A stretch of 62,943 bases of DNA, the filler included, from Reclinomonas americana ATCC 50394 (lineage: Eukaryota), in NCBI GenBank assembly GCA_048213135.1. It is 17 parts of 17 records of this genome, joined end to end, with 100 filler letters (N's around TTAATTAATTAA, not from the genome) between each part and the next. Parts side by side here need not be neighbours in the genome. Positions count along the whole stretch, not along the records: positions 1 to 7,899 come from AFZH01022663.1; 16 more parts are not named here. One strand, given 5' to 3'. The number at the start of each line of letters is the position of its first letter. Positions within the stretch are counted from its first letter, which is position 1. Shown in pieces: positions 4,001 to 7,000 of the stretch. A program made the translations under genes and the position numbers. The notes under the pieces are model-generated. The model did no database searches. It was not told the DNA's origin and saw only the letters and a list, made by a program, of their open reading frames with translations.

Positions 4001-7000
4001 TAACGCAGTCGAATCACGTTATCCGCGCCCTCAGTGTCGGAGGTTTGTGCAAGCGTAACCAACGTGTCATATACTTTGCTGATTGACTTGTACTGCAGCT
4101 TCGGTGTTGTCGTTTTCTCCTGTACGGTTGCAGGCGCGTAACGGACAAATTGTCACCATTGTTGCGGAAGTCGATGCTGCGCTCTCCGTTTGTGTGAGAT
4201 CGCTGACGCAGGGTTTTGTAGACCACGTGTGCGCTGTCCACCATATCTTCCGGCAGCATGAAGTTTGTCGCCTTGGGCTCTAGTTGCACGGCCACTTCAG
4301 TGAGCGGAGTGGCTTTGGCGTTTACTGGGGCTTCGCTGAGCGGCAATGTCATCACAACTACCGCCACAGCGGCGACCGCGACGCCTGGACCAGTCTCCGC
4401 CTGTATTCGTTTCGAGAGTACCCGTTCCTACATACCCCTGGTGTATCCACTCTCAGTCAGTGCGTCATTGATCCCATATTGCATCACGGCAGATCGTGCT
4501 CTAACATTCTTGGTGCACACCTCCCAGATGGCCCTACGTCATATTCGCCGGGCGGATTTGCTATGGCGACTCCGCTGCCGTTCACAATCATCGTCGCTGG
4601 TTACGGTTTGGAGACCACCACGGTAGTTAACAGACTGCGCATACAACCGGGTAGCACGTGTACGGGGAGTCCCACGATTGCTGTCACAAACGTGATCAAC
4701 TCTACCACACTGTCTCCGAGTACGGACCTGTCGACATTGACTGTGACGTTTAACACTGCATTTGCCGTGGCTGGTTCTTGGAGTCTGTGCCTGAACTATG
4801 TTTCCGGCGCCAACGGGTCAAATTTTGCTAAAGTTGGCGGCGATATTCTTGTAGGTTTGTCTTTTCCCCTTGTGCGAGTCAATCACTGACTGCTGTGTGG
4901 TGCCCCGTCGACTCATGTGTCACAAACTGCCTGCAGCCTCGATCACCTCCGTCTCGCCGACCAGATCTGTCGCCGGGGCGACACCGGCTGTAACACTGTC
5001 GGGCACGCAACTCAATCCCACCACGCCCATTGCCGGTGTTCGATTGGAGCCCGCTGCGACGTGCACGGCCGGCAGTACCCCGCAATCAGGGACATTGTCG
5101 ATCAGTCCGGCGAGCATGAGCGCTGACGGCACAAATGCCAACCTCACGTTGACACTTCCCGGGCCCTTCTCGACGGGCGGCGTCTACTTGGTATGTGTCG
5201 CATACGCCAACTCTCCAACCACGTATTCGTCGGCGTCGCTCTCTGTCAATGTCGGTACGTGACAATAGTGCTGTATGTGTGTCGTGCATGTGCTATGGTA
5301 GTATTCTGACTGTGCCTGTGTTGCCGCTAACAGTCGAGAGCGACTCATTCTCCCCTGTGACGCTGTCAGCGAGCACTGCTACCGATGTCACTATCATCGG
5401 CAAGCAGTTGCAGCCGACAACCACTGTGACTTCTGTCCGTCTGGAGTCCTCGTCTACCGTTTCTGCGTCATGCACTGGGGCTGGAACGCAGATTACTGCT
5501 GCACAGATGACGGCTACTGGCGATTTGACTAATTTGACCTTCTCGACCACACTGGCTGGCGGCTCGTACCTCGTGTGCATCGAGTACGCTGCTACTCCTG
5601 GCACATTCACGAGAGTCATGTCGTCGCAGTTGCTGATCGTCCGTTGCGTCTGCCGCGTTGTGACCTTGCTCATCATGTCGGTAGCGTCACTGACTCATTC
5701 TCCTGGTGCAGCATCTGTGACCGGATTCACGCCGAGCTTCATTCCACTTAGTTCGAATGCGACAGTGACGGTGCAGGGAACCATGTTGCAGCCGACGACC
5801 ACAGTGCTCTCTGTGCGATTCCAACCGGACACGACTTGCAGCTCCGCGTCGACGACCAATGTTGTCAACGTCGCCGCCGCCAACCTCAGTTCTTCGAGCC
5901 CTTTCTCGTCGCTGTTGGTGTCGGTGGTCTCGACCATCGCTGTTCCTGGGACGTACGCAGTGTGCGTTGAACTGGCTTTGACACCTGGAACTTTTGTGCA
6001 GGCCGGGTCCACTCGCCTCACCGTTCGTTGCGTACTGTGATCAGCTTTAATGTTTCTCGCGTGCAATAGTCTACTCACTGGCGTTCAAACTTTGTAGGTG
6101 GCGCTACGAGTTTCACCCCGTCAATTGGACTCAGCGACGTGTTTTCCAGTCTGACTGTATCTGGAGTGGGACTGCAGCCAACCACAGATATCCTCTCTGT
6201 GCGCCTACAAGGAGACACGTCATGCTCGTCCGCGTCTGTCACCGACGTGGTCACTGTGGGACCATCGCAACTTGCGACCACCACAACAAATGGCGTCGAC
6301 AGCATGGTGGTATCGTTTGGCGGGCCGCTTTCGAACTCTGGATCGTACGCCGTGTGCGTCGAGTACGCTGTCGTTCCAGGGACATATTCTCCTGTTAGTT
6401 CCCAGCGACTTCTGCTTTGTTGCGTAGCGATTCAGTCCATCACCGATGCAAACTTGTTTTCCCTGACTTTTTGCTTGATTGTGTCCAGCCAAGTCGACTG
6501 GCTACTCGCCAGCCACTGCAGTCAAGGGCGTGACGACGGCGCTGAGTGTTGTTGGAGCGCAACTTGTACCGACGACAACTGTGCTGTCGATGCGGCTGCA
6601 GGGCGACAGTTCGTGTGCGTCATCGTCCACCGCAAATATTGTGGACGTGAGTGCATCGAACATGACAACGTCGACAAGTGGAGGAATCGACACACTTGTT
6701 GCAACGTTCGTCGGCGGTCTGAATGTGTCCGGGTCGTATGCTGTGTGCATTGAGTACGCATCGACACCTGGATCGTTTGTGAGTGTTGGGTCGAGTCGGC
6801 TGTTGATTTGTTGCGTTGCGAGCGGATGTTTGTGGCGTTTTCGGTGGTTCACTGACATGTCATTCTTCTCTGTGTTTCTCTCCTGTGCGTGCTGTCGTCA
6901 TCGCGTGCAGCCGAGTCGACTGGCTACTCGCCGGCCACTGCAGTCAAGGGCGTGACGACGGCGCTGAGTGTTGTTGGTACGCAACTAGTACCGACGACAA

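Follow-up and report, generated by a model that had tools for sequence, protein, structure and literature searches.

Genes and gene models in the window

We analysed the 5' splice sites (donors) in a 62,943-nt stretch of genomic DNA from the intron-rich protist Reclinomonas americana ATCC 50394 (assembly GCA_048213135.1), which is called the window below. The window is eukaryotic DNA with a G+C content of about 55% and contains 17 contigs chained in order. It carries INO1, Sec16, CLU and lysine methyltransferase genes, an enoyl-CoA hydratase / 3-hydroxyacyl-CoA dehydrogenase gene and a repeat gene with exons at 4530-7653; the INO1, hydratase/dehydrogenase and CLU genes each span linkers between contigs. 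Donors reading GTTGNG were called S (shifted-class), those reading GTNNGT were called U (unshifted), and the rest were called other. The S and U donors differed sharply in the last base of the preceding exon (position -1), which was almost never G in front of an S donor.

Gene models were made by dynamic programming with a self-trained gene finder, for which exon pieces validated with Pfam and tblastn served as seeds. The donor was scored from the intron bases alone, with the same score (+3) for GTNNGT and GTTGNG, and the exon base at -1 was never used. Over the window this gave 35 gene pieces, 121 introns and 3 open donors, and the donors at 5255, 5643 and 60109 were added manually, which brought the total to 127. 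A strict subset of 95 donors had both exons of at least 30 nt, a YAG acceptor and a positive coding score on both sides, and a class-blind control used a donor score of 0 for every GT. The models had faults: they lacked the donor at 5255, ran through the one at 5643 and placed false tiny exons at 16005-16178 (left out of the strict set). A gene finder trained on the longest open reading frames was dropped, as CT-rich low-complexity reading frames gave poor introns, and so was a strict CTRAC branch-site filter, since most real introns escaped it.

The models agreed with homologous proteins. INO1 aligned without gaps to its homologue P0001 over residues 84-506 and across three junctions, and its closest relatives were 70% identical on the queried exon and 83% on the best-conserved exon. 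The hydratase/dehydrogenase model was gapless against P0208, a homologue of 760 amino acids, over the eight junctions tested, and the alignment of the CLU model to P0121 spanned four junctions. Pfam profile coordinates also continued over the junctions of INO1, Sec16, the lysine methyltransferase and the 3-hydroxyacyl-CoA dehydrogenase domain (exon by exon).

Association between the last exon base and the donor class

Among the 127 donors of the window, the -1 base of the 37 S donors was A in 11, C in 13, G in 1 and T in 12; that of the 60 U donors was A in 5, C in 1, G in 45 and T in 9; and that of the 30 other donors was A in 3, C in 3, G in 19 and T in 5. The S class made up about 29% of donors (37/127), and U donors were mostly GTGAGT, GTGCGT or GTTTGT. 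The difference in -1 G between S and U was highly significant (Fisher p = 2e-13), and it was found again in the strict subset (S 1/29, U 35/45, other 15/21; p = 6e-11) and in the class-blind models (S 1/19, U 23/30; p = 8e-7), which leaves the S-versus-U contrast real beyond doubt. The initial annotation had claimed that shifted donors almost never follow G and that unshifted donors mostly do. Our own models bear this out, with the same sole S exception at 31459 on the minus strand, and the exceptions it named among unshifted donors (cgat/GTGAGT at 8213, gcaa/GTGCGC at 36721 and ggat/GTGCGT at 58428) read as it gave them.

The strength of the G depletion within S alone depends on the null that is chosen. 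With a codon-position null, 11.8 G were expected in the 37 S donors and 1 was seen (p = 1.3e-5), while with the window context as the null, P(G before GTTG) = 0.155, the p value was 0.015 over all donors and rose to 0.055 when the strict set was used after de-duplication. A comparison of used and unused places gave G before GTTGCG in 0/31 donor-used and 9/58 unused copies (p = 0.024), and G before GTG[AC]GT in 21/30 donor-used and 28/132 unused copies. The opposite extreme to GTTGCG in its preference for -1 G was GTTTGT, which followed G in 9/9 predicted donors (4855, 4043, 62325, 48458, 48722 and others) and in 3/50 unused copies.

The extra T of the S motif also mattered when the intron side was held comparable. 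GTTGCG is rarer in the window than GTG[AC]GT (89 and 162 occurrences), and yet the 62 donors without -1 G included 36 S donors and only 9 GTG[AC]GT donors, which means that the extra T adds something that a perfect unshifted donor lacks. With an equal GCGT core, -1 G was present in 8/13 GTGCGT donors and 0/23 GTTGCGT donors (p = 4e-5), so mere compensation through strength on the intron side fails as an account. The distribution of bases at S -1 was close to that at U -2 (chi-squared p = 0.09) and unlike that at U -1 (p = 2e-11). When S donors were shifted by one base, the column that would face C9 of U1 held G in 101/127 donors, against 65/127 for the plain -1 column. Position +5 of S donors was C in 31/37, while the matching +4 of U donors was mixed (A20 T19 C16 G5).

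The full motif GTTGCGT occurred 36 times in the about 61.5 kb of the window, or 0.59 per kb, which was 5.3 times the 0.11 per kb of the comparison contigs (80 INO1-bearing loci of other eukaryotes from metagenomes, 336,451 bases, with a best identity of 87% to an INO1 exon). The GTTGCGT that follows INO1 in the three densest relatives (L007-L009) was considered as a donor and rejected, as it overlaps the stop codon.

Homologous introns in the repeat gene

The repeat gene provided a comparison of donors at equivalent positions (Table 1). Its eight repeat exons are free of stops and align as one repeat of about 105 amino acids (112 columns, 8 invariant), and the positions of the phase-1 introns that close them are therefore homologous. 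Pfam matched the exons weakly to IPT/TIG-like domains (E about 0.01), in agreement with their earlier label as Ig-like. Along the repeats the donors run G/GTTTGT, G/GTACGT, C/, C/, T/, T/, T/ and T/GTTGCG, so that the -1 base co-varies with the donor class. The switch of donor class that had been read from five of these introns is reproduced exactly in the strings at 4855, 5255, 5643, 6027 and 6419, on exons that align. The introns at 6810, 7232 and 7655 are three near-identical recent duplicates, and the support for intron 5643..5711, which is in frame without a stop, comes solely from the paralogue alignment and the splice signals.

Table 1 Introns and exons discussed in the text, with positions along the window (a slash marks the exon/intron boundary)
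Feature	Position	Strand	Basis
Eight paralogous exons of about 105 amino acids, each closed by a phase-1 intron	4530..7653	+	translation, alignment
Phase-1 intron, unshifted donor g/GTTTGT, acceptor CAG	4855..4936	+	string, gene model, repeat alignment
Phase-1 intron, unshifted donor g/GTACGT, branch-like CTAAC, acceptor CAG	5255..5333	+	manual addition
Phase-1 intron, shifted-class donor c/GTTGCGT, 69 nt	5643..5711	+	paralogue alignment and splice signals
Phase-1 intron, shifted-class donor c/GTTGCGT	6027..6097	+	gene model, repeat alignment
Phase-1 intron, shifted-class donor t/GTTGCGT	6419..6488	+	gene model, repeat alignment
Phase-1 intron, shifted-class donor t/GTTGCGTTG	6810..6910	+	gene model, repeat alignment
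Further introns with donor t/GTTGCGTTG	7232-7333, 7655-7755	+	near-identical to 6810..6910
S intron c/GTTGCGTGC, CLU gene	16845..16921	+	P0121 alignment continues over junction
S intron a/GTTGCGACG, CLU gene	17499..17571	+	P0121 alignment continues over junction
Exception intron acag/GTTGAGCTC, 77 nt, Sec16 gene	31383..31459	-	frame, homologue score
S intron t/GTTGCGTCT, enoyl-CoA hydratase / 3-hydroxyacyl-CoA dehydrogenase gene	46705..46776	+	residue-level homology, ..PGAGG/TVRLP..
S intron a/GTTGCGTGC, same hydratase/dehydrogenase gene	50884..50954	+	P0208 alignment

Position of the cut and properties of the S introns

Protein homology backed four S introns and fixed two of them (46705 and 50884) to the residue. 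Removal of 46705-46776 joined ..LLPGAGG to TVRLPRLIG.., which matched ..VIPGAGGTVRLPKIIG.. in P0208, and its retention would add 24 residues and one stop. Removal of 50884-50954 made the P0208 alignment gapless over residues 685-748 and lengthened it from 739 to 748. These gapless alignments mean that the bond cleaved is the one before the GT of GTTGCG, and the CLU junctions at 16845 and 17499 were consistent with a cut 5' of GT. The claim that cleavage stays 5' of GT in shifted donors is upheld at these places, at residue level in the first pair. The reading frame needed removal of the intron in 33/37 S introns.

In other respects S and U introns were alike. Their median lengths were 73 and 69.5 nt, the acceptors were CAG, and both had a branch-like motif about 20 nt from the 3' end, mostly CTCAC or CTCAT and less often CTGAC or CTAAC (CTNAY within the last 60 nt in 29/37 S and 46/58 U introns). 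S donors were found in 19/31 gene pieces, intermixed with U donors. As length, branch-like motif, acceptor and genes are common to both classes, only recognition of the 5' end differs between them. Introner elements were considered as the source of the S introns and rejected, because the S introns that were fully inspected (by eye, unaligned) were alike in the donor motif alone.

S donors (8940, 10349, 11052 and 12266) were also interspersed with ordinary ones in a gene of 13 exons at 8856-13143 on the plus strand, which has NHL repeats as well as an IPT/TIG domain. Two others (57774 and 57963) lie at 57732-58427 on the plus strand, where the translated exons resemble a bacterial DNA-binding protein of the HU type, with the motif ..GFGTFQ..; exon 58338-58427 gave a weak Pfam Bac_DNA_binding match (E = 0.009). 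The HU-like reading may hint at an organelle-targeted product. These exons had been considered as the N-terminus of INO1, and this was rejected since the reading frame does not run on into INO1. The sequence gaca/GTTGCGTGT at 15916 on the plus strand adjoins the CLU exon 15865-15918 found by tblastn and is probably a further S donor missed by the models, and other unused GTTGCGT copies, such as those at 3042 and 13630, may be missed S donors too.

An intron is required at the single S donor after G, at 31459 on the minus strand: keeping it in the model introduced 2 stops, and the alignment scores with 13 Sec16 homologues then summed to 4405 instead of 5141. No alternative GT was found near it. 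The donor lacks the C at +5 and the T at +7, and it looks like a bulged CAG/GT(T)GAG site and not like a typical GTTGCGT donor.

U1 pairing energies

Pairing energies were calculated for the standard sequence of the U1 5' end, AUACUUACCUG, taken from Tan et al. 2016 (PMC4856993). The S donors had mean energies of -0.15 kcal/mol in the canonical register, -0.83 in the shifted register and -0.74/-0.81 in the bulged registers, and the U donors had -7.2 kcal/mol in the canonical register. The energy comparison across the three registers, which had been proposed as a check, did not separate shift from bulge, as all values for S donors were negligible. With G placed at -1 in silico, S donors in the bulged register reached -4.16 kcal/mol instead of -0.74.

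A hypothetical U1 reading AUACGCACCUG (G5C6) gave -6.45 kcal/mol for S, -8.58 for U and -5.5 for other donors, compared with -0.96, -7.2 and -4.38 for standard U1, and with it the shifted register was the best one for 36/37 S donors. The option of one single U1 that carries A at position 8 was rejected, as ordinary donors would then be too weak (-3.9 kcal/mol). A search of the window with Rfam found no small nuclear RNA (snRNA) match, either at gathering thresholds or at E<=1, and no Rfam family of any kind reached its threshold in the window.

Other features of the window

Besides the usual introns of 60-80 nt there were introns of about 780-840 nt (60109-60909, 61206-61983, 46982-47819 and 49104-49926), mostly of CT-rich low-complexity sequence and microsatellites, which produce long false open reading frames. 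In Rfam, both strands of 40174-40362 gave weak matches of the miRNA-precursor type (MIR533 and MIR408, all far under the gathering score), which suggests a long palindromic hairpin within a predicted 929-nt intron. The 16 linkers each consist of 44 N, TTAATTAATTAA and 44 N, of the six-frame stop type (7900-7999, 15740-15839, 18833-18932 and 13 more).

Comparison with known 5' splice-site systems

A shifted (+1) register of U1 on the 5' splice site was reportedly described by Roca and Krainer in 2009 for rare atypical human sites, and a bulge +2/+3 register reportedly by Roca and co-workers in 2012. Parker and colleagues are said to have distinguished two major 5' splice-site classes in 2022. 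U12-type introns have the donor RTATCCTT and a branch site like TCCTTAAC.

In the sections of Tan et al. 2016 (PMC4856993) used here, U1 registers of the shifted and of the bulged (+2/+3) kind are documented for rare sites of human cells, with ACA/GUCAAGUAUA, which has no -1 G, as a shifted example. As far as those sections describe them, shifted sites resemble the S donors in that GU is still cut, the base pairs are displaced by one position, which would place +1 G opposite C9 (our proposal for the S donors), and a pyrimidine at +3 is followed by the usual +3 to +6 motif one base later. The S donors keep the cut at GU (46705 and 50884, with 16845 and 17499 consistent) and show no sign of a gain from -1 G (1/37, and S -1 like U -2 with p = 0.09). 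The human sites presented there are rare and pair with standard U1 (-6.5 kcal/mol for ACA/GUCAAGUAUA), whereas S donors account for about 29% of donors, their UGCGU yields about -0.8 kcal/mol, and -1 G is almost excluded. The bulge +2/+3 sites, to the extent that the same sections cover them, share with S donors the GUU start and a downstream motif displaced by one base. Unlike S donors, those sites still profit from -1 G, which here is absent save in CAG/GTTGAGC; -1 G was not favoured (S 1/37, U 45/60).

A seesaw of anti-correlated exon-side and intron-side classes (U5- and U6-type) in animals and plants is described in the part of an Open Biol 2025 article (PMC11732430) that we used. The likeness to those classes, as that part presents them, is that an exon-end G and a strong intron motif are anti-correlated within one spliceosome and the same genes; in the window the anti-correlation was clear (p = 2e-13), though strong U intron sides kept G in 21/30. 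The classes set out there share the spacing //GURAG, whereas the intron-side class here is one base longer, //GUUGCGU, with C in place of A, and the near-complete exclusion of -1 G is tied to that extra base. U12-type introns likewise have a long, nearly invariant donor motif and no exon-side requirement, but the S motif is GTTGCGT and not RTATCCTT, and the branch-like motif (CTCAC, CTCAT or CTGAC in both classes), acceptor and length are those of the ordinary introns in the window. No paper on a GTTGCG or GTTGCGT donor class was among the matches listed, which does not establish the class as undescribed. The S donors differ from the known classes in the extra base, in their share of 37/127 and in the almost complete exclusion of -1 G.

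Proposed mechanism and alternative explanations

The S donors are best explained by a shift of the U1 register by one base, which we put forward tentatively. The genes use two kinds of GT-AG donor side by side, G/GTNNGT and H/GTTGCGT (H for A, C or T). The ordinary kind would need an exon that ends in G, while the second serves exons that end in A, C or T. In both kinds the 5' end of U1 would form a recognition helix with the same eight-column motif, G-(G/T)-T-G-(C/A)-G-T, and this helix would probably be retained through the handover to U6. The G opposite C9 of U1 would be the last base of the exon in the ordinary kind and the +1 G of the intron in the second, which amounts to a shift by one base; the mismatch at U+2 would be offset by the near-perfect conservation of TGCGT downstream, and the cut stays 5' of GT. 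Such a shift would explain both why -1 G is not enriched and the excess of S over H/GTGCGT. We infer the pairing from the base statistics, and the host U1 would presumably differ from the standard one at positions 5-6, because standard U1 would hardly pair with S donors.

This explanation elaborates what the initial annotation had proposed, namely that +1 G takes over the U1 pairing of -1 G, that a true shift is favoured over a simple bulge and that the exon end is freed from constraint. The -1 statistics speak for the first two proposals (-1 G in 8/13 GTGCGT and 0/23 GTTGCGT donors, S -1 like U -2), and the standard-U1 energies do not, being -0.83 kcal/mol for the shift and equal in both registers. 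The dependence on the -1 base fits replacement of the exon G by +1 G and disfavours a simple bulge, a conclusion that is partly supported. As for the exon end, A, C and T are equally used (11, 13 and 12), but G is nearly excluded and not neutral.

Several points weigh against a shifted register. With standard U1 it reaches only about -0.83 kcal/mol, no better than the bulges and far under the -7.2 of U donors, and the near-invariant C at S +5 (31/37) would mismatch both standard U1 and the ACAGA box of U6. The variant U1 is an assumption fitted to the data and not an observation. The near-exclusion of -1 G goes beyond what the shift predicts, which is neutrality, and G was found at U -2 in 11/60 but at S -1 in 1/37 (p = 0.027 for all donors, 0.14 in the strict set). 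All donors are predictions from 63 kb, and three S donors are the recent duplicates of the repeat gene. The exclusion of G calls for an extra argument: the narrow seven-base motif may persist only where the exon cannot give a G, and among the 65 exons that end in G, GTTGNG would be one of many acceptable sequences (1/65 was observed).

The same anti-correlation could arise from a split, seesaw-like consensus without any shift of U1, in which exons with -1 G would be held by U5 loop 1 and the others by a strong contact on the intron side, through U6 or another factor, with the motif merely sitting one base further in (UGCGU from +3). The S intron side is indeed far more conserved than that of U, and weak pairing with standard U1 in every register would suit recognition by a factor other than U1. 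We nevertheless consider this unlikely, as the strongest U intron sides retain -1 G (GTG[AC]GT, 21/30), so that within U the seesaw has little force and becomes absolute only with the extra T; moreover, UGCGU lacks complementarity to the ACAGA box of U6 (from the motifs as read, not computed), and the change of spacing is left unexplained. A dedicated second U1-like snRNA, or a U1 gene variant, could instead be fully complementary to GUUGCGU and work in its own normal register, in analogy to U11 and the U12-type introns. S donors, with a near-invariant motif of 7 nt, resemble U12-type donors in having no exon-side preference, and with a U1 of the sequence AUACGCAACUG they would pair at -10.5 kcal/mol. 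The same RNA would bind U donors at -3.9 and other donors at -2.6 kcal/mol, which means that two snRNAs would be required, and the Rfam search of the window gave no snRNA match. The classes do not differ in branch-like motif, acceptor or length, and a second snRNA alone predicts a neutral -1 base and not a nearly absent G; it seems improbable to us.

A bulged register, with +1 G and +2 U paired to C8 and A7 of U1, U+3 bulged and GCGU pairing beyond, has precedent in the 68 predicted human sites of the bulge +2/+3 register given in the consulted sections of Tan et al. 2016 (PMC4856993), equals the shifted register in energy with standard U1, and would suit the exception CAG/GTTGAGC at 31459 on the minus strand. 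Pairing of -1 G with C9 would still bring a gain there (-0.74 to -4.16 kcal/mol), so that enrichment of G would be expected where 1/37 was seen. A bulge would also have no advantage over H/GTGCGT, yet S donors are four times commoner at exons without a final G (36 and 9), and the bulge is thus very improbable for the class as a whole. An origin of the pattern in errors of gene-model inference, in paralogy or in local base composition is hardly credible. It is true that the introns are all predicted, that six S donors belong to the same repeat gene and that G is rare before GTTG throughout the window (15.5%), with a within-S depletion that is marginal by that null (p = 0.015 to 0.055). However, exon bases never entered the donor score and the class-blind models reproduced the contrast; S donors are spread over 19 gene pieces and four are backed by homology; and G precedes unused GTTGCG in 9/58 places against 0/31 used ones, with p = 2e-13 for S against U.

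Returning to the shifted U1 register, a bolder form of it would make the register mainstream, serving about 3 in 10 introns, either through a U1 that has diverged from ACUUACC to something like ACGCACC or through a second U1-like snRNA for GUUGCGU, and this form we regard as doubtful. Non-canonical U1 registers have so far been a minor correction to human splice-site prediction, and if this form were true, about one third of introns would be served by one here, or by a matching change in U1. Exons would then no longer need a final G, which would mean that evolution can re-tune the code of 5' splice sites, and the organism would offer a natural system to separate the roles of U1, U5 and U6 in the choice of the cut site. 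Gene finders trained on GTNNGT would, in that case, misplace many exon ends in Reclinomonas americana.

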